Source: a virus
Taxonomy: Duplodnaviria > Caudoviricetes
Length of the DNA stretch: 26,994 nucleotides
Direction: 5' to 3' (one strand)
Virus record (IMG/VR): IMGVR_UViG_3300037470_000016
Span: 1 to 26,994 of that record
Under the pieces are notes generated by a model. That model worked only from the letters and a program-made list of their open reading frames with translations, did not search any database and had not been told where the DNA came from. Within the stretch, counting starts at the first letter, position 1, and each line of letters begins with the position of its first letter. Shown here piece by piece: positions 4,671 to 26,540 of the stretch. Both the position numbers and the translations under genes were made by a program.

Positions 4671-4741
4671 TACCCAATGACGGAATCGAACCGCCGTGAT
4701 CTCTTTGTAAGAGAGACGTTCTCCCATTGAACTAATCGGGC
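4671..4741 (-). tRNA. tRNA-Val(UAC)
   Basis: Cloverleaf: GCCCGAT/ATTGGGT acceptor, TCTCT-CTTACAA-AGAGA, GTTCGATTC T-loop, A73. Confidence 0.9.
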
Positions 4742-4812
4742 TTGTCGTCCGGTAGTCGGGAGTATTTCGCCCGACTCAATACAATCAGCCCCGGTTGCCC
4801 GGCTGATCAAAG

Positions 4813-4879
4813 TAGACCTGCGGGGAGTCGAACCCCGATCTCTCGCTTAGGAGGCGAGACTGCGTCCTTCACCAGGTCA
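4813..4879 (-). tRNA. tRNA-Arg(CCU), non-canonical with reduced D-arm
   Basis: TGACCTG/CAGGTCT acceptor, TCTCGC-CTCCTAA-GCGAGA, CGGGG-TTCGACT-CCCCG; D region GTGAAGGACGC; 67 nt. Confidence 0.75.
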
Positions 4880-4880
4880 G

Positions 4881-4951
4881 CTCTCATACCAGGATTCGAA
4901 CCTAGATCCGACGGTTAACAGCCGCCTGCACTACCCTTGTGCTATACGAGA
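4881..4951 (-). tRNA. tRNA-Asn(GUU)
   Basis: TCTCGTA/TATGAGA, GGCGG-CTGTTAA-CCGTC, G73. Confidence 0.9.
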
Positions 4952-4957
4952 TTGAGG

Positions 4958-5323
4958 CTAGCGCTTTGGGCGCTTGCCGCTCCCCTTGTTGCGACCCTTA
5001 TAGGTGTCTAGCTGACTGTCGCAGTTGGGGCAAATCATTCGGAGGTTTGGCCTGCTGTGGTCGGTTGCATCTCCAGAGATGTGATCGAGGATAAAGACTA
5101 GTTCTCGATCGTTGTGAATCTGACTGCATCCGCAGATGTCACACAGGCCGCTCTGATCATTCAGAACGTATACTCGCATCCAGTGAGTGCGGCTGGTGTG
5201 ATACTGACCCACGCCAGTTTCCAGCCATGCCTCAATCTTGCCAGCTATCAGCTTGGCCTGCTGGCACTTGGCGTTGCAGTAGGATGCCTTGACGTCAGAT
5301 CCACAGTGCTTACACTTATTCAC
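4958..5323 (-). CDS. HNH endonuclease (free-standing homing-endonuclease type) within the tRNA cluster
   Basis: CKHC..YCNAKC zinc motif; CDICG...LDHISGDATDHSRPNLRMICPNCD HNH motif. Confidence 0.9.
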   Translation of the reverse strand: MNKCKHCGSDVKASYCNAKCQQAKLIAGKIEAWLETGVGQYHTSRTHWMRVYVLNDQSGLCDICGCSQIHNDRELVFILDHISGDATDHSRPNLRMICPNCDSQLDTYKGRNKGSGKRPKR

Positions 5324-5324
5324 G

Positions 5325-5399
5325 AGCCTGATGCAGGAATTGAACCCGCGTACTCCTACTTACTAGGTAGGTGCTAAAGCCAGCATTAGCTAATCAGGC
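5325..5399 (-). tRNA. tRNA-Thr(AGU)
   Basis: GCCTGAT/ATCAGGC, CCTAC-CTAGTAA-GTAGG; G1-C72, C2-G71 and G35U36 fit Thr identity. Confidence 0.85.
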
Positions 5400-5400
5400 G

Positions 5401-5474
5401 TGATTCAGGTGGGACTTGAACCCACATTCTCCCGGGGTAAGAGCCCGATGCACTTCCATTTGTGCGACTGAATC
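5401..5474 (-). tRNA. tRNA-Lys(CUU)
   Basis: GATTCAG/CTGAATC, TCGGG-CTCTTAC-CCCGG, A73. Confidence 0.9.
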
Positions 5475-5478
5475 AAGG

Positions 5479-5550
5479 TACCTCACGAGGGACTCGAACC
5501 CCCATCACCAAGTTCGTAGCCTGGTGTCCTGTCCTTTGAACGAGTGAGGC
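5479..5550 (-). tRNA. tRNA-Arg(ACG)
   Basis: GCCTCAC/GTGAGGT, CCAGG-CTACGAA-CTTGG. Confidence 0.9.
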
Positions 5551-5552
5551 GG

Positions 5553-5623
5553 GGTGACCAGAGGGAATCGAACCCTCGCAGCCAGGGACACAACCTGGCA
5601 GGCTACCATTACAACATGGTCAC
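5553..5623 (-). tRNA. tRNA-His(GUG)
   Basis: GTGACCA/TGGTCAC, C73, GCCAGG-TTGTGTC-CCTGGC; encoded -1 base is T, not G. Confidence 0.85.
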
Positions 5624-5625
5624 AG

Positions 5626-5696
5626 TGCCGATCCGTGGAATCGAACCACAGCCCCCGGGTTTTCAGGCCGGTGCTCTACCACTGAGCTAGAAGGGC
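5626..5696 (-). tRNA. tRNA-Phe(GAA)
   Basis: Canonical D and T arms, loop CTGAAAA; two acceptor mismatches and C31-C39 mismatch. Confidence 0.8.
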
Positions 5697-5699
5697 AAA

Positions 5700-5734
5700 G
5701 CCACGCTTGTGCGCCATGGTGCGTGACGACCATG
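5700..5734 (-). ncRNA. Predicted H-type pseudoknot filling the Glu-Phe spacer
   Basis: CATGGT-C-GTCACGC-ACCATG-GCGCACAA-GCGTGGC: 6-bp and 7-bp crossing stems. Confidence 0.5.
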
Positions 5735-5737
5735 AAG

Positions 5738-5809
5738 TACTCCATCGGGGAGTTGAACCCCGCCTAGCAGGTTGAGAACCTGATGTGCTAACCGCTACAC
5801 AAATGGAGC
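5738..5809 (-). tRNA. tRNA-Glu(CUC)
   Basis: GCTCCAT/ATGGAGT, CAGG-TTCTCAA-CCTG. Confidence 0.9.
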
Positions 5810-5814
5810 AAGAG

Positions 5815-5891
5815 AGCCTGTGGAGGGATTCGAACCCTCACTTGTACGGTTTCTAAGACCGACGCCTCTACCAATTGGGACATACACAGGC
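5815..5891 (-). tRNA. tRNA-Leu(UAG), short variable region, U73
   Basis: GCCTGTG/CACAGGC, CGGT-CTTAGAA-ACCG, Leu-like D-loop CCAATTGGTAGA. Confidence 0.8.
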
Positions 5892-5937
5892 ATTGTCCAC
5901 GCTGTGGACATCACGTCACGACGAAGTCGTGATGCGG

Positions 5938-6009
5938 CGCATATGAAGGGAATCGAACCCTCGACGAGTCGCTCGACAGGCGACCGTTCTACCATTGAAC
6001 TACATATGC
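5938..6009 (-). tRNA. tRNA-Asp(GUC)
   Basis: GCATATG/CATATGC, GTCGC-CTGTCGA-GCGAC, G73. Confidence 0.92.
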
Positions 6010-6012
6010 AAG

Positions 6013-6087
6013 TGGTACAGAAGCAGGGAGTTGAACCCTGATCGTCGGTGTATCAGACCGATGCTCTAACCATTGAGCTACCTCTGA
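6013..6087 (-). tRNA. tRNA-Ile(GAU)
   Basis: TCGGT-CTGATAC-ACCGA; U1-U72 mismatch; the only tRNA here with encoded CCA. Confidence 0.9.
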
Positions 6088-6088
6088 G

Positions 6089-6157
6089 TGGAAACGGAGG
6101 GAATCGAACCCGTCCTGAGCCAGTTTGCAAAACTAGCCTGTCACCTTGACCATCCCC
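6089..6157 (-). tRNA. tRNA-Ala(UGC), non-canonical with reduced D-arm
   Basis: GGGGATG/CGTTTCC with G3-U70 and A73 (Ala identity); GCTAGT-TTTGCAA-ACTGGC; D hairpin GTCA-AGG-TGAC. Confidence 0.8.
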
Positions 6158-6161
6158 ATTG

Positions 6162-6229
6162 AGGCCCACCTCGGAGTCGAACCGAGCTGCGTCCCTTTGC
6201 AGGGGACGCCACTACCTTAGTAGCAGACC
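6162..6229 (-). tRNA. tRNA-Cys(GCA), non-canonical with reduced D-arm
   Basis: GGTCTGC/GTGGGCC, U73; GCGTCCC-CTGCAAA-GGGACGC; D hairpin ACTA-AGG-TAGT. Confidence 0.8.
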
Positions 6230-6233
6230 AGAG

Positions 6234-6314
6234 TTCCTCGTCTTGGAATCGAACCAAGCAAGCCGTCGCGCGACGCAGGGGTTACAGCCCCGCTTGTGTC
6301 CCAGCACCCAAGGA
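6234..6314 (-). tRNA. tRNA-Tyr(GUA), long variable arm, reduced D-arm
   Basis: GCGGGG-CTGTAAC-CCCTGC, variable hairpin GTCG-CG-CGAC, A73. Confidence 0.8.
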
Positions 6315-6315
6315 G

Positions 6316-6398
6316 CGGAGAGCAAAGGAGTCGAACCCTCGGGGGTTACCCCGGCCTGGTTTTCTAGACCAGTTGGGCACCACTGCCCGCTGCAATCC
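6316..6398 (-). tRNA. tRNA-Ser(AGA)
   Basis: CTGGT-CTAGAAA-ACCAG, long variable arm GGGG-TAA-CCCC, G73, 5-bp D-stem with 4-nt loop. Confidence 0.82.
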
Positions 6399-6402
6399 AA
6401 AG

Positions 6403-6475
6403 CTGCTCCCCCAGGATTCGAACCCAGAACAAGTGGTTCAGAGCCACTCATGTTACCAAATTACACCAAGGAGCA
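6403..6475 (-). tRNA. tRNA-Gln(CUG)
   Basis: TGCTCCT/GGGAGCA, AGTGG-CTCTGAA-CCACT, U1-A72, G73. Confidence 0.92.
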
Positions 6476-6480
6476 TCGAG

Positions 6481-6551
6481 CACATCGCCAAGGAATCGAA
6501 CCCTGTCCAAGAGGTTTGGAAGCTCTTGTGCTGCCAGTACACCAGCAATGT
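6481..6551 (-). tRNA. tRNA-Trp(CCA)
   Basis: ACATTGC/GCGATGT, G73, loop TTCCAAA; C31-C39 mismatch. Confidence 0.85.
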
Positions 6552-6552
6552 A

Positions 6553-6623
6553 TGGCTGGACTGGGATTCGAACCCAGGTTTCCGAGTTATGAGCACGGCG
6601 TGGAACCTCTCCACTATCCAGCA
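6553..6623 (-). tRNA. tRNA-Met(CAU), initiator-like
   Basis: U1-C72 mismatch, G2-C71, C3-G70, A73; CCGTG-CTCATAA-CTCGG. Confidence 0.85.
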
Positions 6624-6624
6624 G

Positions 6625-6695
6625 AGCCCCACCTCGGGTTCGAACCGAGGAGCCTAGTTTGGAAGACTAGTATGTTACCACTACATCAGTGGGGC
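6625..6695 (-). tRNA. tRNA-Gly(UCC)
   Basis: GCCCCAC/GTGGGGC, U73, CTAGT-CTTCCAA-ACTAG. Confidence 0.92.
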
Positions 6696-6702
6696 AAGTC
6701 GC

Positions 6703-6774
6703 GTACGGCGGGTTGCCAGCACCCTCCATGGTCTAATCTAGACCAGCCAGGAATCGAACCTGGTATCTCCGTAC
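6703..6774 (-). ncRNA. Circularly permuted tRNA-like RNA (Y RNA YrlA-like tRNA-mimic module)
   Basis: GTACGG-AGATA-CCAGG(TTCGATT)CCTGG-CTGGTCTA(GAT)TAGACCATG-GA-GGGT(GCTGGCA)ACCC-G-CCGTAC: T arm, closed acceptor stem, D arm, open anticodon stem. Confidence 0.7.
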
Positions 6775-6777
6775 TCG

Positions 6778-6848
6778 TGCGGAAGGCAGGAATCGAACCC
6801 GCGTTGCCTGTTCCCAAAACAGGTGTGATGCCATTTCACTACATCCAC
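6778..6848 (-). tRNA. tRNA-Pro(UGG)
   Basis: CCTGT-TTTGGGA-ACAGG, GTGGATG/CTTCCGC, A73. Confidence 0.88.
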
Positions 6849-10615: not shown

Positions 10616-11445
10616 TATCCTCCGTCCACCATTTCCATGAGCCAGTTCATTCCGTTGGTTGCTGCCTGGTAGGCGCCGTACTCCGGATCAGCCTTGACGT
10701 CCTCCATGGCCATCAGGGAACGTGCGGAGTCCTTGACTCCGCCAGTAGTCGTGCTGGTCTGTCCAGTCACCTCGTCACCCATGTAGTTCGTGGTGGCAGT
10801 GGTGACCGTTGGGTTGGCCTTCTCGTATGCATTGACTGCACGCCGGAAGGTGGCAACCTCGGACTTGGTAGGGTCCCTACCCAGCAGGGACTGCGCAGCC
10901 TGCATGAAGATGGCGTGCGCGTCCTGCTGGGTGGACATGTCGTAGCTGGTGCTGGTCTGGGTGACAGAGCGGGGAGTCTTGGACTCCGACTCCCGCTGAG
11001 CCCTATCCTTGGCCAGGATGTCCCACGGAGTGAGACGCTGGCCTCGACCTGCCTTGTAGTACGCCGCCGCCTGCTCGGCGTACGTTCCCCACATCTGAGC
11101 GATGTCACCATCCTTCATCTTGGTGACGTCATACCCAGCGAGACCGAGCTGAGTGAGGAACTTGTTCTTCGTCTTCGCGTCCCAGTCGTAGTACTGATCC
11201 GCCACCTCGCTGAGCGAGGTGGCCTTGTCGTACTGACCTGGCGTGGCGAACCGCATCTCGCCCATCAGGGTGTCGTTCTGTCCCAGATAGACGAGAGGGT
11301 CCTTAGTGCCACCGGAGGAAGAAGATGGCTGAGCGAGAGAGGCGAAGTCTGACAGGATGTCGTCCTTCGTCCTCTTGGCGGAGCCAGTGATCTCATCCTT
11401 GGCGGCGATGCCACCGGCTCCGAGCTGACCGATTCCGTCAGCCAT
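10615..11445 (-). CDS. Putative internal virion protein
   Basis: 276 aa; one-base start/stop overlaps on both sides. Confidence 0.65.
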   Translation of the reverse strand: MADGIGQLGAGGIAAKDEITGSAKRTKDDILSDFASLAQPSSSSGGTKDPLVYLGQNDTLMGEMRFATPGQYDKATSLSEVADQYYDWDAKTKNKFLTQLGLAGYDVTKMKDGDIAQMWGTYAEQAAAYYKAGRGQRLTPWDILAKDRAQRESESKTPRSVTQTSTSYDMSTQQDAHAIFMQAAQSLLGRDPTKSEVATFRRAVNAYEKANPTVTTATTNYMGDEVTGQTSTTTGGVKDSARSLMAMEDVKADPEYGAYQAATNGMNWLMEMVDGG

Positions 11446-14400
11446 CAGCTTCCTCCTTGTGCGAGGGTGTCAGTGATATCAACCTGGACGGGGGCGGCCT
11501 CTTGGCCGACCACCGTCGCGTCGGACTGTTCGAGCCTCTCCTGATCCTCCGCGCTGTAGTGAGTGTTCATGTTGAATCCCATGTCAGTGGCGAAGTACCT
11601 GGAGTGAACCCATGCGAACCTGGTGTCAGACTCGATGAGACTCATGGTCAGCTTGTCCCACCAGTTCTTAAGGTCGTAGTTCGCGTTAGCGGTGATGTCG
11701 TCAGACCCGCCATTCATCTTGCGAATGACGAGAGCCTGCTGCATGTCCTTGCGGTACGACAGGTAACCCTTCAGGGTGTAGATGTCAGAACGCTGTCCGA
11801 TGGTGCCGTCAGGCATCATGGACTTGGCCCACAGCTCAGGATCGTCTACGACCTCCTGAAGCTCAAGCGCGGTGCGATCGTACTTACCCTTATCGAGGGA
11901 GCTGAACTCAGCCTCCCAGGACTTGTTGTAGTACGGATTCTTCGTACCGTCAGGCAGGTAGATGGACGTCAGAACCATGTTGATGGCCTGCCGCTTCGCC
12001 TTCAGATCCTCGGCTCCATCGTCGTCGAAGGTCTGAAGTCCACGGTCGAACAGTGCGGCATTGACTCCCTCCATCATGGAGTTGTAGTCACGCCATCCGC
12101 GAGCAGTCTGTGCCTCCGTCCATGCCTCCTGTGCGCCCATCTGGGTGCGCTGAGTGTCGGTGGACGCAGTGCCGGTAGAGTGCGTCTTCTGGTAGAAGTA
12201 TGCACCCTCCGAGTAGGTTCCGTCACCCTCGGATCCAACGATCAGGCCAGCATACTTGCTGCCGACCTTGTCGATCAGATCCTTGTAGTACTTGGACATC
12301 TTCACGGACTCGGCAGTGGGCCTTAGCCCACTGTTGTTCTTGCTCATGGACTGAGAGAACATGTAGAACGACTCGCCGTACTTGTCGTAGAACTTCTCGT
12401 CAGCACTGTTGGGGTCGAGCTTCTGCATGCGCTGGAACTCGTCACGGAAGAACTGGTAAGGGTCCTGCCCGTTGACAGAGAACGGCAGCGACCAAGCTGC
12501 CGCAGTCCTGAAGATGGTCCAGCGGTCTGCCCGCTCCTTCAGTTCCTTCCAGGTGGGCTCGGTGGTCCTGAGACCCTGCTCCCACTTGTAGTTCTCCACC
12601 TGCATCATGTAGAGCAGTGCACGCTGCTTGGTCTCACCCATGTCATCGGTTGCATCGCCGAGGCGCTTGCCGGTATTGGGGTTGACGAAGTCGGTCCAGC
12701 TGTCCTGTGGTCCGAACGGAAGTACACCGAGCTTCTTGCTCCAGTCGGCGAACTTGGGATCGTCCTGAGCGAAGTGGTTGGCAGAGATCTGAACGTACGG
12801 ACCTACACCAACAGGAAGCGCGCCGTCTCCATGGTTGAGCACCAGCTCTACGCTGGACATGGGAACAGTCAGCGCAGCATCCTCATCCAGGCCAAGCTCC
12901 TTGTTCAGGGCCTTGCCTCCCAGATACTCTGGGATCTGGATGAGCATCTTCCGCTCAGAGTACTTGATGAGCTTCTTCTCGCCAGTGGCTGGATCAGTCA
13001 CGTGGCCGGACGCGTCAACAGTGTTGCCGTCCTGATCCACCGTAATGCCTGCCCTAGTGGGCATGCCGTACGTCTGAGCCACTCGTGCAAGCACGTCAGG
13101 CTTGTCGGAGATGATACGTCCCCAGCGGTTCCACGACTCCTGCTGCGCTCCGAAGAATGCACCGAAGTGACGCATCATGTACGCCATCTTCGTCTCGTGA
13201 TCCATGGTGAACGTGAACTTCTTCACGTCATCAAGAGCGCCCTTGCGGGCGTTCTTCTCAAGGATCTTCCTGGTGGACTCGTCCACGTGGGTGACACCCT
13301 GAGACCTCATGATCTGCATCTGCTGAGACAGATGAGCCTTGTAGCTCTGACCGAACAGCGGATTACGCAGGAGCTTGGTTGCCGGGATCTGGTTGGCGAT
13401 GTTGTACCAACCGTTGATCGACTTGTCCAGCAGCTTCGAGACTGCACTCTCTCCAGTCGCGTAGCGGAATGCCTCGGCATTGACCATCGGGCGGTTGGCC
13501 TGAGGGATTGCCTTCAGCGTCTCAGGATCCAGCTTGCCCTGAAGTACGGACGCCCTGACGGCGTCCATTCCTGGCATTGCCGGGTCCAGCACATAGTCCA
13601 CCTGAGCCTTCACTCGCTGAGCAAGTTCATAGTCAGGCATGTGCTTGAGACCGATGTCAGTCCTGTAGCGAAGCCCCTCTGGGGTGCTTCGCATCCAGTT
13701 GACCAGCTGACCCTCATCGAGACCCTCAAGGACCTTACGGCCAACACTGCTCTGGCCGATCTGATCGTTGAGCAGACGAGTCCACGCCTCCATGTGCTTG
13801 TCTGCTCCATGGCTGGCTGGAGTGATGTTCTCCCAGTCTGCACGTCGCATCCTCTTGAGGTACCAGTCGGACTGAGATCCCATGAGGTTCTGGAAGTTCC
13901 TCTGGCCTGCTGCAAGGTCCTTGTACAGCTCTCCCTGCTTGCCTCCGTAGGCTGGAGCGAATACCTCTCGCCCAACCTTCACGTCACGAGTCTGGGCGCC
14001 GTAAGCGACCAGCGATCCGTAGTCGGCATGAGTCTGCCTGGCTGCTGCGATGTCGTCAGTGAGATCCTTCAGGCCATCCTCAAGGGTCTGGATCTTGTGT
14101 GGGTTCTGGCCGAGAGCCTTCTCCCTCAGTAGATCATTCCTGATCTCGGTGTGGACAACAGACATCTCGTCGATGTGCTGAGCCAGCGCCCCCTCGGTCT
14201 GCCTTGCGGCAGCCACGGAGTCGCTTGCCCACTTGCCACGGATGAAGTCCTCCATCATGACCTTGCCGCCACTGGCTGCACGCTGCATCATGGCCAGTCC
14301 GCCGAAGCGTGCTACCTGGCCAAGGAAGTCATCGGCAAGTGCCCTTGGGGCGTAGCCGAGACGGAACAGCTGAGCGAACTTCCAAGTGGTGGACAGGGTG

Positions 14401-16319
14401 TCCAGAACTTCGGAGGTGTTCATCCATGCGTTACCAGCCTGGTTCTTCATTCGCTGGAACGTGGAGCCGTGAGCGTTCAGGGTCTTCTCGAACGTTGCGA
14501 AGTCCATCATGACGTGACTGTTGGCGAGCTGAGTGTCGAAGATCGGAGTGGAAACTACTCGTCCACCGTCAGCCTCGATTTCAGCAACCCTGATGGTGCG
14601 GGTTGGATCGTTCGGATCCGGCATGGTTGCCGATCCGTAGGATCGCTGGCCCTGAGCCGCAGACTGTCCAGCACGTCGCCTGAGGGCGAAGTCCTTGTAG
14701 AGGTCGTTAGCCAGCTCATAAGTGATCTGATCGTTCGGTCCCTTGCCAAGGTTGTAGCGGTCCACCATACGGTGAGTGATCTGCTGCTCAAGCTGGATCA
14801 GAGTCATCTGACGATCAGCCACAGAAGAATCCAGGTAGCGGGAGACGTACATCTCCCGACCCTCACGACTCAGTCCCTTGACCTCTCGCAGACTTGCGTC
14901 CAGCTCCTTGAAGCTGTCCTCTGCGTGAATGTCGATGAAGCTGGTAGGCCTGATGTCGTTGTAGGTGCGCACCACCTTGACCGGGAATCCGATCGAAGCG
15001 TTGTACACCAGGGCTGCACTACCCTTGATGACTCCCTGTCCAGTGACCTTCTTGAGTCCACCGTCCTGGAGAGTCTTGGATCCACGGAACTTCATTCCCG
15101 CTGGAGTAGTCACACGGTTGAAGTTCATGTTGTCGACAGACGCGAAGGCGTCGAGCTTGTCGTCGATGATCCTGGACTGACGGTTCATGTCGTTGATGAT
15201 CTTGGTCTGGTTGTCAAGGTAAGTCTTGATCATCTGACCACGGGCGCTTGCCTGCTGAGCGGCAGGCAGTGTGCTGTAGTGAGTTCCCAGTCCAGTGACG
15301 CGCTGAGTCAGCATGTCGATCTGTCCGCTGATCTTGGCGCTCTTGACGTCGAGGACGTCCTTCGCTGCCTTGTCACCCATCGACACACGTAGGATGTCAG
15401 ACACCTCGTCTGCATCGTTCGCCTGCGAGAGCAGGCGTGCGAGTGCGTCACCATTGGCAGACTTGCTCAGTGTGGGCATGTCGCGACGGAGGACGAGTGC
15501 TGCATTGTCAGGGTTGGTCTGCTTGGTCTTCATGACCAGGTCGACCATGGACTGGAATGCTGGCTTCTGGAAGAAGCCGTCAAGAGTCTTAGTGCCAGTG
15601 GTCTGTGCTGCCACATTCTTCGTGAACAGCTTGGACTTGGCCACTCCAGCAGACTTGCCAGCAAGGACGAGAGGATCCATGTACCAGGACACAGCGAAGT
15701 CGGTGGCGCCAGTGACGTACTTGGACGCACCGGAGCCGAAGTACTCCTGAGCCCTGGTCTTGACTCCGAAGATGTCGTTCTTGGTTGCCTCGTCCTTGTA
15801 CTGACCACGATCAAGGAGGCTGTTATCCTCGGCGATCTGGTCAGGCCGAATGCCACGAGCCTTCAGCTCCTTGTCATTCAGACCCATCATCCAGATAGCC
15901 TGGCCTGGGCTCACATCGTGAGCCAGGTCCCAGTAGTCCTTGAAGGCGTCGACCTCTCCGTCCTCACCGATGTAGTCAGGACGGCCGTAGACGACACTGT
16001 GTGCAGCCATGGCTCCAGCGCTGAGTGCTGGTGACACGGTGGCGCTGTACAGGGCGTACAGCTTGGATCCAACCCACTCGATCGGCTTGAACAGGGGCGA
16101 GTCGAAGACGCTTCCTCCGGTCGCAGCGTTACGCTGCTCCTGGAGTGCGTTGATCTGTTCACTCGAAACCTCCGGGTTCTCAAGGTCAACGCCAGCGTTC
16201 TGCCAGTAGCTCTGAAGAGCGTACTGGGCAGCCTTCGGCATCTGGTCAACCTCAAGATCACCATCAAGGACAGCGTTGGAGAGAACCTCCATGTCCTTCT
16301 GGTTCGGGTTGTAAGCCAT
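11445..16319 (-). CDS. Large internal virion / DNA-ejection protein (functional analogue of T7 gp16)
   Basis: 1624 aa helical protein between portal and capsid genes in a podovirus-like layout. Function is inferred from size and position. Confidence 0.65.
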   Translation of the reverse strand: MAYNPNQKDMEVLSNAVLDGDLEVDQMPKAAQYALQSYWQNAGVDLENPEVSSEQINALQEQRNAATGGSVFDSPLFKPIEWVGSKLYALYSATVSPALSAGAMAAHSVVYGRPDYIGEDGEVDAFKDYWDLAHDVSPGQAIWMMGLNDKELKARGIRPDQIAEDNSLLDRGQYKDEATKNDIFGVKTRAQEYFGSGASKYVTGATDFAVSWYMDPLVLAGKSAGVAKSKLFTKNVAAQTTGTKTLDGFFQKPAFQSMVDLVMKTKQTNPDNAALVLRRDMPTLSKSANGDALARLLSQANDADEVSDILRVSMGDKAAKDVLDVKSAKISGQIDMLTQRVTGLGTHYSTLPAAQQASARGQMIKTYLDNQTKIINDMNRQSRIIDDKLDAFASVDNMNFNRVTTPAGMKFRGSKTLQDGGLKKVTGQGVIKGSAALVYNASIGFPVKVVRTYNDIRPTSFIDIHAEDSFKELDASLREVKGLSREGREMYVSRYLDSSVADRQMTLIQLEQQITHRMVDRYNLGKGPNDQITYELANDLYKDFALRRRAGQSAAQGQRSYGSATMPDPNDPTRTIRVAEIEADGGRVVSTPIFDTQLANSHVMMDFATFEKTLNAHGSTFQRMKNQAGNAWMNTSEVLDTLSTTWKFAQLFRLGYAPRALADDFLGQVARFGGLAMMQRAASGGKVMMEDFIRGKWASDSVAAARQTEGALAQHIDEMSVVHTEIRNDLLREKALGQNPHKIQTLEDGLKDLTDDIAAARQTHADYGSLVAYGAQTRDVKVGREVFAPAYGGKQGELYKDLAAGQRNFQNLMGSQSDWYLKRMRRADWENITPASHGADKHMEAWTRLLNDQIGQSSVGRKVLEGLDEGQLVNWMRSTPEGLRYRTDIGLKHMPDYELAQRVKAQVDYVLDPAMPGMDAVRASVLQGKLDPETLKAIPQANRPMVNAEAFRYATGESAVSKLLDKSINGWYNIANQIPATKLLRNPLFGQSYKAHLSQQMQIMRSQGVTHVDESTRKILEKNARKGALDDVKKFTFTMDHETKMAYMMRHFGAFFGAQQESWNRWGRIISDKPDVLARVAQTYGMPTRAGITVDQDGNTVDASGHVTDPATGEKKLIKYSERKMLIQIPEYLGGKALNKELGLDEDAALTVPMSSVELVLNHGDGALPVGVGPYVQISANHFAQDDPKFADWSKKLGVLPFGPQDSWTDFVNPNTGKRLGDATDDMGETKQRALLYMMQVENYKWEQGLRTTEPTWKELKERADRWTIFRTAAAWSLPFSVNGQDPYQFFRDEFQRMQKLDPNSADEKFYDKYGESFYMFSQSMSKNNSGLRPTAESVKMSKYYKDLIDKVGSKYAGLIVGSEGDGTYSEGAYFYQKTHSTGTASTDTQRTQMGAQEAWTEAQTARGWRDYNSMMEGVNAALFDRGLQTFDDDGAEDLKAKRQAINMVLTSIYLPDGTKNPYYNKSWEAEFSSLDKGKYDRTALELQEVVDDPELWAKSMMPDGTIGQRSDIYTLKGYLSYRKDMQQALVIRKMNGGSDDITANANYDLKNWWDKLTMSLIESDTRFAWVHSRYFATDMGFNMNTHYSAEDQERLEQSDATVVGQEAAPVQVDITDTLAQGGS

Positions 16320-22427: not shown

Positions 22428-22499
22428 GGCATGTATGGTGGATTTTAGATGGGAGTCACTCCCCCATGATCATCCCCGTTTAACAACCCCCGGGTCAGA

Positions 22500-23135
22500 T
22501 GTCATGACATGGCAGGGCAAACTGGACATCGGACATCGTGGGACATGGTAGGACATGTGTGGACATGGGCTGGCCAGGCTGGGGCAGGGCTGGCATGGGT
22601 GGGCATGTGTTGACATGTACAGAAGGGGCAGCATGTGTACTCATATGCAGGGATATGTGCCCATTTGCCTGTGATTTGCGGGTGATTCGCCCGATTCGCC
22701 TTGGATGTGAAGGTGTGGACTGACACATGCCTACATATCCACCCATGTGTGGACACCCTACGCGCGCGTGTGCGTGTGCGCCTGTTCCATCCATGATCAT
22801 ACGTGCGTGCTCATGTGAGCACAGCTGTGCCCATGTGTGCATGAGTGGAGGAACAAACAGGACATCAGAGGACATAGCGGAAGACTTACTGGGGCAAGTC
22901 GTACATGTCCTTATTCACAGTCACCTTCGCTCCAGTGAATCCAAGGCTCTTTGATCATGGGATCAGCCTGCCCTCAGGGGCAGGATGTCCTGCTGTGTCC
23001 TGGTTTGCCCTGATCTTTTGTCCTAGTTTAGTGTGACATGTGGGCAGCTTCTGGACACCTCAAAGAAGTTTTCTGCCCTGTTGTGTCCTAGTTTGCCCTC
23101 CAGTGAAGCGCCTGACATGTCCGACTTGCCCCAGA
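22500..23135. repeat. Short-repeat region (GGACAT at 10-bp period; inverted TGTCC copies), probable genome terminus / packaging region
   Basis: GGACAT at 22524, 22531, 22541, 22551, 22561, 22860, 22870; TGTCC at 22906, 22986, 22996, 23019, 23084, 23118; sits between divergent late and early operons. Confidence 0.65.
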
Positions 23136-23152
23136 ATGCCGGCCTGTTCACC

Positions 23153-23181
23153 TTTGCGGTCACTCCTGCAATCCGTAGTGT
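23153..23181 (+). promoter_or_regulatory. Putative early sigma70/HrdB-type promoter P1
   Basis: TTTGCG-N17-TAGTGT. Confidence 0.5.
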
Positions 23182-23240
23182 TCTGGTTGTCAGCCAAACG
23201 AACCGCAAGGGGAGTGAGGCGGGGATCAAACCCCGGACAA

Positions 23241-23256
23241 CTTGAGAACTTCAGAG
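23241..23256 (+). promoter_or_regulatory. rrn-leader boxA-like element
   Basis: CTTGAGAACTTCAGAG resembles the recalled actinobacterial rrn leader motif CTTGAGAACTCAACAG; lies downstream of P1 and hairpins. Confidence 0.4.
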
Positions 23257-23414
23257 CACGATCAGACTCAAGCTCACACTTGTGAGCATGGGCCAGCACG
23301 CAGAGCAGCCTCCCCTTACTTAGGTTTGGGGACTTGCGAGCCGAGCGTGTGACCGGAGCTTCCCAGTATCCGCTTGACGGCGGGGAAGAGGAGTGGGGCA
23401 TTACTGGTCTGGTC

Positions 23415-23443
23415 TTGACAGGTTCCTGTGAACCTGCGAGAGT
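23415..23443 (+). promoter_or_regulatory. Putative early promoter P2
   Basis: TTGACA-N17-GAGAGT with extended -10 TG. Confidence 0.55.
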
Positions 23444-23546
23444 CCCCCTGTCCGCTTGCAGTGAGCAAGCGGCCTGGATCACGATGCTAACCTTCGGGGA
23501 TGCGTGAGCGGGCCGTGAATCGCTGCTACAGGACACCAAGAGGGGC

Positions 23547-23575
23547 TTGACAAGGTGAACACGACCTGACAGAGT
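23547..23575 (+). promoter_or_regulatory. Putative early promoter P3
   Basis: TTGACA-N17-CAGAGT with extended -10 TG; shares CTTGACA-N11-ACCTG-NN-AGAGTC with P2. Confidence 0.6.
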
Positions 23576-23582
23576 CTGACTC

Positions 23583-24230
23583 GTGCCGAGGAGCTTTCAA
23601 GGTCCTTGACGCAAAAGCCAGTAACGCCCGGAGTAAGGGGAGTTGCCTGTAGATCCTTGCGGGTGGCGAACTTTAAGTCGAGAGCGGTAACCACGGTGAG
23701 AGCTGAGCTGTACTCACTCCCCGAGAGGGGTGCCTGACTCGATCAAAGGCAGCGTCTGTTCCTTACCGGTCACCATGCCGGAACCAATTCCATAAATGCA
23801 GTGTGTGATCCCAGGCAGAGAAAGACTGCCCCTCGCACCGTTCATACCCTAACCGGGTGCCCTTGTCGGGCCCTAGGGGTGATGTACGTTCGATCGGATC
23901 GTGTGTGCTGCTCTGAGGGGTACAGTGATATGGCTGTGCTTGAGGAGCGGTGCGAGCTGGATCACACACATTCTCTTCCTCTTATCGTGCCGCAAGGTGC
24001 GATAAGGGCTCACCGGGCCGTATGCTAGGCTCGGTGGGTCCCCTTGTTGAGGGGCTTGCCGGTCATGAGACACTCGTAAGAGTGTCCACGTGGCCTTCTG
24101 AGCCCCTCGGGGAGCCTGCGGGTACTTCGGTATCCAAGGGCTGTCCGGGAGCCTCACAGAGAGCCATGTGGCTGCTTTGCAGCCAAAGGGCACGGCGCTG
24201 ACGAATGTCAGCGACGATCTGTGAGGGCCT
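23583..24230 (+). ncRNA. Candidate large structured ncRNA or structured early leader
   Basis: No credible ORF; nested long-range helices and GAGA, GCAA, GTAA and TTCG tetraloops on the plus strand. Confidence 0.55.
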
Positions 24231-24249
24231 TAACGCAAGGGAGAGAGAC

Positions 24250-24579
24250 ATGGCCAAGAACACGTACACCTTCGTCTGCATGCTGGATGGACAGCGTGTC
24301 GCTGGCACGTCGGAGGATTCTTACTCCGACGTCTACGACCTCATGACTTGCGTCAACTGCAACCATGGGGCAGGCCGCGACTGCCCCTCCATCAACTTCA
24401 TGCTTGACCTGAAGGCGACGGAACAGGCCACCCTGATCACTCGCACCGAGGATGGTGTGGGTGTGAACGTGGCCTACCTGAACAAGGAATTCGTCCCGGT
24501 GCACACGATGGACAACTGCCCGGTGTACAACTGCGAGACGTGCAGCGATCTGTATGCATGGGCTCGTCAAGATGGCTGA
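24250..24579 (+). CDS. Early hypothetical protein, Cys-rich (CxxC motifs)
   Basis: ATG at 24250 after the CAAGGGAGAGA motif; high-GC3 codon usage. Confidence 0.8.
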   Translation: MAKNTYTFVCMLDGQRVAGTSEDSYSDVYDLMTCVNCNHGAGRDCPSINFMLDLKATEQATLITRTEDGVGVNVAYLNKEFVPVHTMDNCPVYNCETCSDLYAWARQDG

Positions 24580-24658
24580 CAGTCAGTGACCAGATGGAGC
24601 CGACGCCTTCAGGGCGTCGGTTGCCTCGGCATCACTGCCGGACACAAGGGAGAGAAAC

Positions 24659-24985
24659 GTGAAGATGTCCGAGAAGATCGCCAAGATCGAAGAGCAGCTC
24701 ACTCGTGGGCTCATCACTTCCGACGAGTTCTGCTCGGAAGTGGATCTGGTAGTCAGCAGGGTGGTACGTCAGCTGTCGCTCAAGAAGGGCGAGGTCTGGC
24801 GTGCCAAGGACAAGTACGGCAACTTCCAGTCCTTCCTGGTCGGAGAGGTGTCCTACCAGGACCACTTGGTCCTGTGGAGGTTGGACGAGAGCCCCTCGCA
24901 CTGCTCCATGGACTACTGGACGAACAACAAGGGCTACACCGGCTGGACGAAGACCCTCAGCTCGACGGGGACCCTTGCGGCCTGA
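24659..24985 (+). CDS. Early hypothetical protein
   Basis: GTG after CAAGGGAGAGA; 108 aa. Confidence 0.8.
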   Translation: MKMSEKIAKIEEQLTRGLITSDEFCSEVDLVVSRVVRQLSLKKGEVWRAKDKYGNFQSFLVGEVSYQDHLVLWRLDESPSHCSMDYWTNNKGYTGWTKTLSSTGTLAA

Positions 24986-25068
24986 CAGTACATGACCACG
25001 GTGAACGTTCCCCTCCGGGGGAACGTTGACCCGGCATCATGTGCCGAACTGAACAAGGGAGAGAGACC

Positions 25069-25464
25069 TTGAAGAGCATTGAGTTCAATGACGCCTTCAT
25101 GGGTAGTGGTGACCCCCTCAAGGGTTCCACGATCCCCGGTTTCGGTGCGGGCAACCGTACCGCCTCCACCCCACGGGTGGGGCGTAACCGAGCGAAGGCC
25201 GCGCCGCTGAAGCCCGTCAAGAAGGCCAAGGCGCCGCTGAAGCCCGTCAAGAAGGGCTTGGCGCGGTGTGCTGTCTCTGTCAAGTCCATCGGTGACCGCA
25301 CCTTCGAGGTGCGCGTCAAGGGCACCCTTCACATTCTGGGGCACATTCGCTCCAGTCAGGGCGCCAAGGGCAAGGCGTACAGCTACCGCATCATCGGAGA
25401 GGCAAGCCACAACGGCTTCGCCTCTCAGAAGGCTGCCGTCGACCGGATGCTGGAGAAGTGCTGA
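25069..25464 (+). CDS. Early highly basic protein, possibly nucleic-acid-binding
   Basis: TTG at 25069 after CAAGGGAGAGA; APLKPVKK repeated twice. Confidence 0.75.
   Translation: MKSIEFNDAFMGSGDPLKGSTIPGFGAGNRTASTPRVGRNRAKAAPLKPVKKAKAPLKPVKKGLARCAVSVKSIGDRTFEVRVKGTLHILGHIRSSQGAKGKAYSYRIIGEASHNGFASQKAAVDRMLEKC
25201..25255 (+). repeat. 25-bp direct repeat at 30-bp period, in frame
   Basis: GCGCCGCTGAAGCCCGTCAAGAAGG at 25201 and 25231. Confidence 0.9.
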
Positions 25465-25618: not shown

Positions 25619-25762
25619 GGTGATCCACAATCTTCATCATCATCGTCTCTGACGATGTTGGTGATGTGCCATGGATTATGGTACGGCATGCGGATGCTTG
25701 CATCCGAATGGCATGACTGTGACAACGTCACAGTCAATAAACCCACACAAGGGGAGAGAATC

Positions 25763-26440
25763 ATGACCGACCACTCCGCAGCCGTCAACGCCGGTATCCA
25801 GCTCCTGGACGCCGAGCGTCCCGGCTGGAAGTCGGAAGTCGACCTCGACAACCTGGACCTGGGTTCGTGCGGTGTCTGTGTGCTGGGCCAGATCTTCGGA
25901 GAGTACTCCGAGGGCCTGTCCGAGCTGGGCATCAGCGTGGGCTCGCGCTACGGTTTCGACCTGGTGGGCGGAAGCGGCTCGTACACTGAGCTGACCAAGG
26001 CCTGGAAGGACGCTCTCGGCACGAACAACGTGCTGGTCGAGAAGGGCGACGTGTACAAGGACACCTACGGCTACGCCGTCATGGTGCTCCAGACGCACCT
26101 CGTCTCGGTCGACGGCAACACCATCACCACGTACATCGTGCAGACCGGCTCGACCAGCACGGCGGGCGTCTTCACGCCGTACAACGCCAAGAGCGTGTCC
26201 GTCCTTCTGAAGACGGACTTCGAGACCACGTACAAGACCAAGGTCGAGAAGTTCGCTCCGAAGAAGGGCATGTTCGTCACGAACGCGGCGGGCCAGAACT
26301 TCTACATGGTCGGCGACGACGAGGTCCGTGAGATCAAGCACGGCTCGTACTCCCGATACCTGCGGACGGAAGACCTGGTGGGCATGAAGGAGATGCTCAC
26401 GGGTCCCGGCCACAAGTTCTCGTCGGTGATCGTCAAGTGA
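25763..26440 (+). CDS. Early hypothetical protein (LLDAERPGW...CVLGQIFG domain plus beta-rich modules)
   Basis: ATG at 25763 after CAAGGGGAGAGA; strong codon bias. Confidence 0.85.
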   Translation: MTDHSAAVNAGIQLLDAERPGWKSEVDLDNLDLGSCGVCVLGQIFGEYSEGLSELGISVGSRYGFDLVGGSGSYTELTKAWKDALGTNNVLVEKGDVYKDTYGYAVMVLQTHLVSVDGNTITTYIVQTGSTSTAGVFTPYNAKSVSVLLKTDFETTYKTKVEKFAPKKGMFVTNAAGQNFYMVGDDEVREIKHGSYSRYLRTEDLVGMKEMLTGPGHKFSSVIVK

Positions 26441-26540
26441 TCCAATCGCACTAGCTGCGAGCATGGTACTCACCTTCGGGTGAGTGCCGTGTGCCTAGCT
26501 ATGTTCGGTTAGGTACAACTCTGCACAAGGGGAGAGAATC

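Follow-up and report, generated by a model that had tools for sequence, protein, structure and literature searches.

The window, by which we mean the whole 26,994-nt stretch of DNA that was analysed, is a 27-kb virus record whose terminase shares 86–88% identity with those in 29 GenBank records, all from Streptomyces phages of cluster BF (Beephvirinae). BF phages are described as podoviruses with short direct terminal repeats (PMC9753666). The portal, capsid and tail genes of the window reside on its minus strand together with 17 tRNA matches, which are clustered (4671–6848), as is typical for BF phages. A 1624-aa protein encoded in the virion region (11445–16319, minus strand) has no Pfam match and a sole PHROG match of unknown function, and is a candidate ejected protein.

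Because the right genome end of phage Stella aligns at position 22457, the contig crosses the end junction, and the folded region considered here (23583–24230) lies ~1.1–1.8 kb inside the right end. It points inward, ahead of small genes without assigned function, and fills the gap from the final early promoter-like site (23547) to early gene 1 (24250; Table 1). In one relative gene 1 is swapped for other sequence, with its flanks retained. The corresponding arm of Stella extends ~16 kb behind the leader, its genes are mostly co-oriented and include replication genes and one that resembles ardA, and Stella has no annotated RNA polymerase.

Two contigs from an independent metagenome (X2) are identical to the window over 23100–24400, with zero differences, which excludes an assembly artefact for the folded region. 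A BLASTN search against GenBank phages matched the promoter end alone, in two records, with the P3 region as the best kept part in Stella and Dennebes, and the syntenic region was therefore gathered through the terminase instead. The resulting collection holds 60 IMG/VR loci obtained in this way, nine GenBank ends, and loci from pattern scans. Later pattern scans contributed 18 loci, many of them duplicates and two of them chance matches (L253, L254), and several matches of an earlier scan in AT-rich coding sequence were disregarded. Counts were made on 25 leaders that span promoter to gene 1; these are related to one another, such that the counts are not independent events, and the set used for fold, Shine-Dalgarno and exact rRNA matches differs by one member from that used for 16S fragments and boxA.

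Three promoter-like sites stand in tandem ahead of the folded region, which on sequence alone is the arrangement that an rrn-type antitermination leader would need. They were read by hand, as a consensus promoter scan returned nothing in this region. Another candidate, TTGACG at 23374, lacks a good -10 element, and its segment is replaced in a relative. Transcripts from P3 would start near 23582. The preliminary description took the RNA behind P3 to be the first early transcript, a ranking that is put in doubt by the two further sites upstream. The segments between promoters are exchanged among relatives. Between P2 and P3 lies a structured module (23465–23520) with a conserved GATGCTAAC-hairpin motif, which is common to L014, L011, L249, L022 and L035.

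Table 1. Features of the early region of the window, in order of position
Feature	Position	Strand	Description and basis
P0 promoter-like site	23153–23181	+	-35/-10 with 17-nt spacer; read from sequence; similar site at the same place in relatives
Upstream partial boxA-like copy	23241–23257	+	Has the 3′ half of the host motif, without its first bases
P2 promoter-like site	23415–23443	+	TTGACA, 17 nt, GAGAGT; read from sequence; kept in L014
P3 promoter-like site	23547–23575	+	TTGACA, 17 nt, CAGAGT; -10 region aligns with TAGAGT of Streptomyces rrn tandem promoters
5′ hairpin	23583–23610	+	Predicted fold, weak alone (z -1.9); hairpin seen by eye at this place in many relatives
D1	23624–23755	+	Host rrn-leader frame around a phage-specific insert; covariation in 15 phages
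D1 inner three-way junction	23686–23734	+	4-bp stem, conserved ACCAC linker, 6-bp hairpin, 4-bp GNRA hairpin; covariation helices
boxA core UGUUCCUUA	23757–23765	+	Aligned to host leaders and relatives; the host's downstream GAACUCAACA half is not contiguous
Replacement of boxA 3′ half	23766–23788	+	Predicted 16-nt hairpin (23766–23781) and spacer-like remnant (23781–23788); the same in L014 and X2
D2 accessory multibranch domain	23801–23969	+	Nearly invariant 25-nt hairpin core (23884–23908)
Optional two-hairpin insert	23980–24039	+	Splits the anti-Shine-Dalgarno strand
D3 four-way junction	24041–24241	+	Closing helix 24041–24046/24236–24241, extended by 23973–23979, covers the gene 1 Shine-Dalgarno sequence
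Early gene 1	24250–24579	+	109 aa; no PHROG or Pfam match

Fold and domains of the plus-strand RNA

The folded region was first noticed as a candidate multi-domain, non-coding RNA of the plus strand, of no recognized family, and these broad assignments hold. Every motif quoted at that time is found at its given coordinates. The plus strand folds with a z score of -7.99, and 0 of 20 shuffles are as low, compared with -3.68 for the minus strand; G-U pairs make up 36 of 227 predicted pairs on the plus strand and 13 of 216 on the minus strand, and the sense strand folds lower in each of the 25 syntenic leaders. In the nearest relatives, stop codons or frame changes interrupt three internal open reading frames (ORFs) and one upstream; a fifth ORF that overlaps or abuts the region can be aligned over 26 of its 83 residues only. 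No Rfam family was matched at its gathering score or in an E-value search, in which four weak matches were rejected, one of them on the wrong strand. Likewise, no Rfam model of a group I intron or of a known self-cleaving ribozyme core has a match in the region.

Comparison with relatives reveals three domains (D1, D2 and D3). The local helices of the preliminary description are kept in relatives, namely 23801/23969, 23832/23956, the two hairpins at 23981–24038 and three 3′ hairpins, several with compensatory changes. Its long-range closures fare poorly in a fold extended to the start codon (23582–24252). There, the pairing proposed to close a first domain has a probability of 0.04. This helix is complete in the window only. 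L014 also has the outer 11 pairs in full but four of the inner seven, and 13 other phages keep 4–6 of the outer 11. The pairing proposed to close a second domain (23774/24067) has a probability of 0.00, and its 3′ strand pairs locally within D3. The original 3′ boundary (24230) is too short, since the outermost D3 helix takes in the Shine-Dalgarno sequence.

Both D1 and D3 exhibit covariation among 15 phages. In D1, 95.7% of alignment cells are paired and two-sided changes occur at 15 of 18 pairs, whereas none of 500 shuffles scores as high and slid controls reach 30–50%; in D3, 96.7% of cells are paired and 12 of 30 pairs change on both sides. These counts lean in favour of the structures, which were derived from the same sequences, and the shuffle control ignores relatedness. 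Within the inner junction of D1, the GAGA loop becomes GCAA in three relatives. Two further helices (2 and 3), seen only in a five-sequence alignment of D1 (fam2), were rejected at 64–65% paired, as that alignment looks out of register.

D2 also occurs in L014, in L247 and in three relatives from soil or root metagenomes, and a different domain occupies its place in most others. Its closing stem is kept at 11 of 11 pairs in L247 and 10 of 11 in L014, and the stem 23832/23956 carries three compensatory pairs in each of the two. A resemblance of the closing stem to the 5′ and 3′ ends of 16S rRNA, noted by eye, gave no ungapped match at threshold. The optional insert that follows retains both hairpins in L247, with three and two compensatory pairs. 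Its insertion site (23979/24040) occurs in three states. The site is empty in X11, X16 and X24; two hairpins occupy it in the window, L247 and L011/L250; and L014 and X5 have 532 nt of other sequence there. The latter insert carries an endonuclease gene (L014 1953–2420, minus strand; also in X5) with a Pfam HNH_3 domain (E 2e-11) and a C-terminal HTH. This gene lies in the loop of a predicted leader hairpin, with its start codon and ribosome-binding site within the hairpin stem, and may be a homing element that targets the empty site.

D3, or at least its closing helix over the Shine-Dalgarno sequence, is kept across the subfamily, and a covariance model of D3 (R3) finds 14 further loci, duplicates among them, at E values of at most 0.0013. 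The closing helix itself has zero pairs with two-sided change, each pair being invariant or changed on one side, and the gene 1 Shine-Dalgarno sequence forms its 3′ strand. Among the leaders, predicted pairing of this sequence averages 0.81 for gene 1 and exceeds 0.8 in 17 of 25, compared with 0.58 and 7 of 45 for later genes, a count in which L032 was probably scored on a later gene. For the window alone the gene 1 value is 0.64, against later values of 0.66 (gene 2) and 0.33. No match to R3 or to a model of the D1 interior, R2, was found in three of three Streptomyces genomes, with 150 of several thousand candidates scored in each and no positive control. A scan that requires a U-tract found no terminator-like site at the 3′ end of the region; Streptomyces terminators often lack a U-tract. 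The idea of a free-standing ncRNA thus loses ground: because the last helix closes over the ribosome-binding sequence of gene 1, an mRNA leader fits better than a discrete ncRNA.

Long hairpins with z scores of -2.1 to -5.6 also reside ahead of later early genes (24578–24655, 24982–25065, 25690–25760 and 26437–26540) and are candidate processing sites. Each precedes a near-identical ACAAGGG(G)AGAGA ribosome-binding sequence, and the first two share flanking motifs that are kept in relatives. Within the third early gene, a 30-nt tandem duplication (25201–25260) yields a repeated lysine/proline-rich peptide.

Relation to the host rrn leader and rRNA

The 5′ part of the region resembles the promoter and leader of the host rRNA operon, a homology that is absent from the preliminary interpretation. 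The D1 frame consists of an outer 4-bp stem (23624–23627/23752–23755) and a conserved purine-rich CCGGAG/AAAGG internal loop. A covariance model built from phage D1 sequences only (R1) matches the leader in 19 of 19 host loci, the weakest with an E value of 0.047, as well as the 16S-23S spacer copy in several loci, and matches nothing in mature rRNA. In host and phage alignments alike, the stem and CCGGAG are followed by AAGGAAGCG and boxA. The interior of the frame measures 23–25 nt in three of the four host alignments shown and ~120 nt in phage. No host counterpart of the inner three-way junction was found by profile and covariance searches of rRNA, or among the 150 candidates scored in each of the three Streptomyces genomes.

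In relatives, D1 is followed by a motif that in Actinobacteria stands ahead of 16S genes. Of the 32 host matches with sufficient downstream sequence, 31 have a 16S start no more than 450 nt away, and rRNA operons were confirmed at all eight host loci checked. The sole match without a 16S gene after it (L091 6001–6019, Kitasatospora) could be a leader copy in a prophage or mobile element. Tiled host-operon profiles yield 47 matches in 70 phage sequences, duplicates included; all 47 are in the sense orientation and nearly all are to leader or spacer, and none lies in the window. The host leader also matches 119 phage records, all from Streptomyces phages, of ~46, 50 and 128 kb.

The window's own 270-nt segment 23541–23810, which includes the -10 region, aligns above shuffles to seven Streptomyces leaders, with 0, 1, 0, 0, 0, 6 and 0 of 500 shuffles scoring as high. 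In a scan of 594 tiles of the window against one host leader, the top tile was 5941 in the tRNA region (57.1), and leader tiles ranked second and sixth. The outer stem of D1 falls outside the minimum-energy fold of the window (probability 0.0; -52.2 kcal/mol when constrained versus -54.3). As judged by sequence comparison, the D1 frame is homologous to the Streptomyces rrn leader, and the RNA would thereby possess one feature of an rrn-type antitermination leader, a stem-loop frame upstream of boxA that is shared by descent with the host.

The boxA element is altered in the window. The 19-nt host motif is present at 15 or more of 19 positions in 23 of the 25 leaders, and 13 leaders carry two copies at 13 or more. 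Only the window and its closest relative, L014, fail the full motif, and both keep the 9-nt core; no ungapped boxA copy above background was found in the window leader. Positions 23757–23764 agree with the host motif at boxA positions 2–8 and retain G2, C5, C6 and U8, in our own alignment to numbering taken from PMC3177189. The alteration is common to a whole lineage. In X16 and X24, among the differences listed, the changes within 23766–23788 fall at 23770–23775. The upstream partial copy is 12/19 identical to the host motif in the window, a value equal to antisense background, and 11–17/19 at the same place in relatives.

The bases that replace the 3′ half of boxA are complementary to the 5′ strand of D1, with 11 of 11 pairs in the window and L014 and 4–6 in others. 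This complementarity is the outer helix of the preliminary description. Pairing of these bases onto D1 may form an alternative state that hides boxA; its predicted probability is 0.04. In Escherichia coli, boxA is reported to be necessary and sufficient for the rRNA antitermination complex (PMC10250234). An Aquifex structure is described in which NusB-NusE reads boxA positions 1–8 only, with G9A judged tolerable (PMC3177189), and NusA is described to bind flanking spacer sequence (PMC2724277). If NusB-NusE needs positions 1–8 and NusA uses the flanking spacer, the core could work with the downstream half displaced. Work on M. tuberculosis reportedly places the actinobacterial NusA site in that downstream half.

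Two other features of rrn-type leaders are lacking, namely a full contiguous actinobacterial boxA motif and a leader-trailer helix enclosing rRNA. The window fold contains no complement to the boxA 3′ half of the kind that forms the host-type helix, and no rRNA gene is enclosed. The closing stem of D2 stands at a place similar to that of the leader-trailer helix.

Fragments of 16S rRNA are present in eight of the 25 leaders; in the window, no 16S or 23S fragment is detectable by Rfam, profile or exact-match searches. Stella carries a miniature 16S (model positions 106–311 with the interior deleted) that scores 85 bits with the Rfam SSU model, and L244, L247 and L208 carry such a module too. 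The 25 leaders give nine 16S matches of at least 10 bits, all in the sense orientation, compared with none in antisense, none in reversed and 0–1 in shuffled sequences. Positions 238–308 recur in six leaders and 399–428 in three, presumably helices 11–12 and 16. Short exact matches to mature rRNA at a score of at least 12 number 20 sense and 6 antisense among the 25 leaders, against 9.8±3.6 in shuffled sequences, and show no excess at a score of at least 11. Several helices inside D1 look by eye as if derived from 23S rRNA, but such an origin was rejected as unsupported, with profile E values of at least 0.68 that were no better than reversed controls and R2 values of at least 1.2 inside rRNA.

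The miniature 16S 5′-domain module of Stella (45525–45633, record minus strand; L001 879–987) lies upstream of a promoter, as it does in L244, L247, L208, L012, L021 and L022. Two gene calls in Stella, gp90 (hypothetical, opposite strand) and gp89, overlap this module and the leader, respectively, and both are therefore probably spurious. The 16S hairpin (~234–304) also occurs in unrelated phages: before the early genes of Streptomyces phage Omar (L256 548–665), in an intergenic gap of Klebsiella phage SBP (L257 1501–1548), and directly behind a gene and ahead of a tRNA in Serratia phage Muldoon (L258 1501–1538).

Possible function and comparison with known systems

What is established for the folded region is its position, the homology of the D1 frame, the covarying folds of D1 and D3, the complementarity of D3 to the Shine-Dalgarno sequence, and the lack of a conserved ORF. 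The leader would be continuous with gene 1. We propose that this region is the 5′ leader of an early polycistronic mRNA that recruits host Nus antitermination factors onto RNA polymerase. We assign this reading a probability of roughly 0.45, and our confidence is higher for those relatives in which the boxA motif is intact.

In such a mechanism, host RNA polymerase would start at P0, P2 and P3, and NusB-S10 would bind the boxA core when it appears behind D1 in the nascent RNA; NusA, NusG and SuhB/S4 would be added as they are on pre-rRNA. Neither Rho nor hairpins would then terminate the modified polymerase along ~0.7–1.1 kb of untranslated RNA and an early arm rich in hairpins. D3 would keep the ribosome-binding site of gene 1 shut until a nuclease cut or a protein opens the junction, and D2, the D1 inner junction and the optional inserts would serve as exchangeable modules. 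Because the downstream half of boxA is displaced by a hairpin in the window, loading would rest on the 9-nt core, perhaps aided by the upstream partial copy.

The boxA motifs of the other 23 leaders, the R1 matches to every host locus, the uniform sense orientation of the profile matches, and the lack of an annotated polymerase in Stella favour recruitment of Nus factors. Against it stand several properties of the window, in which a good ungapped boxA is missing (as in L014), host profiles find no match, the best tile lies elsewhere, the outer stem of D1 is off the minimum-energy fold, and the boxA core could be hidden. The modest pairing of the gene 1 Shine-Dalgarno sequence in the window and the absence of two-sided changes in the D3 closing helix weigh on the same side, as does an RNA size far beyond the needs of a boxA site. 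Also, Omar has its 16S fragment before early genes, and no boxA was seen there by eye.

Alternatively, boxA could be vestigial in this lineage, with the leader now acting solely at the post-transcriptional level, where its 5′ structure would resist nucleases and gate the translation of gene 1. Such a gate could possibly be opened by RNase III-type cuts, by analogy to those that occur in T7 early mRNA. This alternative, which we judge somewhat unlikely, draws on the broken, lineage-wide state of the motif, on the retention of D3 or its closing helix across the subfamily, and on the long hairpins before later early genes. However, the lineage has retained both the D1 frame and the 9-nt core, the upstream partial copy is kept, and nothing in D3 was identified as the kind of long, regular duplex that usually marks an RNase III site. 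The size of the RNA and the number of its covarying domains might instead suggest that cleavage or termination releases the leader as a stable RNA of 0.5–0.7 kb. In an extension of the function suggested in the preliminary description, this product would act in trans as a decoy or scaffold that titrates ribosomal proteins, Nus factors or RNA-targeting defence nucleases. The sense-oriented 16S fragments of relatives agree with this idea, and tolerance of the HNH gene only in a hairpin loop is expected where the fold matters. Yet the window offers no direct support for it, no such rRNA fragment is detectable there, the U-tract scan gave no terminator-like site, the last helix includes the gene 1 Shine-Dalgarno sequence, and modules are exchanged freely among relatives, and we consider a trans-acting product unlikely.

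The inverted repeats could also be read as DNA structures that signal entry, replication or packaging, given that the region is 1.1–1.8 kb from the genome end. This is highly improbable, as G-U pairs are kept (one in 15 of 15 phages), loops are of the GNRA and UUCG types, the sense strand folds lower in every leader, and the homology is to a host signal that acts at the RNA level. A broader reading joins several of these functions and is quite unlikely as a whole. Here the first transcript of Beephvirinae would be a counterfeit pre-rRNA, composed of an rrn leader and exchangeable folded modules, some of them real 16S helices. Nus factors and ribosomal proteins would assemble on it into a ribonucleoprotein that protects early transcription against termination and titrates defence nucleases directed at rRNA. 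In the lineage of the window, boxA would be a two-state switch, with its core exposed by the local hairpin or paired onto D1, the four-way junction that locks the Shine-Dalgarno sequence would time the first protein, and the mobile HNH nuclease would home into the leader.

The proposed Nus-recruiting leader shares several features with the host rrn leader: tandem promoters with a similar -10, a boxA core preceded by the same frame of stem and internal loop, a structured downstream RNA that is untranslated, and a second boxA-like copy per transcription unit. It differs in that it sits on early mRNA with no rRNA gene after it, its frame holds a 120-nt phage insert, the 3′ half of boxA is displaced in the window lineage, and it ends in a junction that sequesters the Shine-Dalgarno sequence. 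The nut site of phage lambda (boxA-boxB, used with N protein) is likewise a phage RNA signal behind an early promoter and, similarly, the leader would recruit host Nus factors. Lambda nut has its boxB hairpin 3′ of boxA, and a short hairpin (23766–23781) follows the boxA core in the window. The order and sequence of the phage leader follow the host rrn leader, not nut, and the RNA is far larger. Despite lacking the two rrn features named above, the leader likely works like an rrn or nut leader.

T7 has an early leader with host promoters in tandem and a boxA, and with RNase III hairpins ahead of its early genes; this leader is short and is followed by the phage's own RNA polymerase gene. Both T7 and the phage studied here are podoviruses with tandem host-type promoters near one genome end and hairpins before each early gene, whereas no RNA polymerase gene is annotated in the BF phage Stella. 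ROOL, GOLLD, raiA, HEARO and group I introns, which we take to be the large phage and bacterial ncRNAs in Rfam suited for comparison, are similar in size and in having a multi-domain covarying fold, and one relative of the leader carries an HNH ORF in a peripheral loop. Unlike these classes, the leader has no Rfam match at gathering or E-value thresholds, its modules are exchangeable, and it appears continuous with mRNA.

In the literature covered, which lay mostly outside subscription journals, neither this leader nor rrn-leader copies in Streptomyces phages are described. New here are the covariation map of D1 and D3, the split-boxA lineage, and the three-state insertion site with its HNH gene. 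If the Nus-leader reading is true, it would indicate how host polymerase could be kept going along the early arm in lytic Streptomyces phages that have neither an RNA polymerase nor an N protein annotated. Such a leader would offer a natural probe of rRNA antitermination in Actinobacteria, a process studied mostly in E. coli, and its split boxA is a natural variant that separates the NusB-S10 core from the downstream half. The three-way junction of D1 and the four-way junction of D3, covarying and without an Rfam family, are ready for modelling. A further candidate structured RNA was encountered in a distant relative (L215 289–352, plus strand), where a Hammerhead type II-like match of 29.9 bits (gathering score 37; E 0.043) lies ~1.2 kb upstream of a boxA copy.
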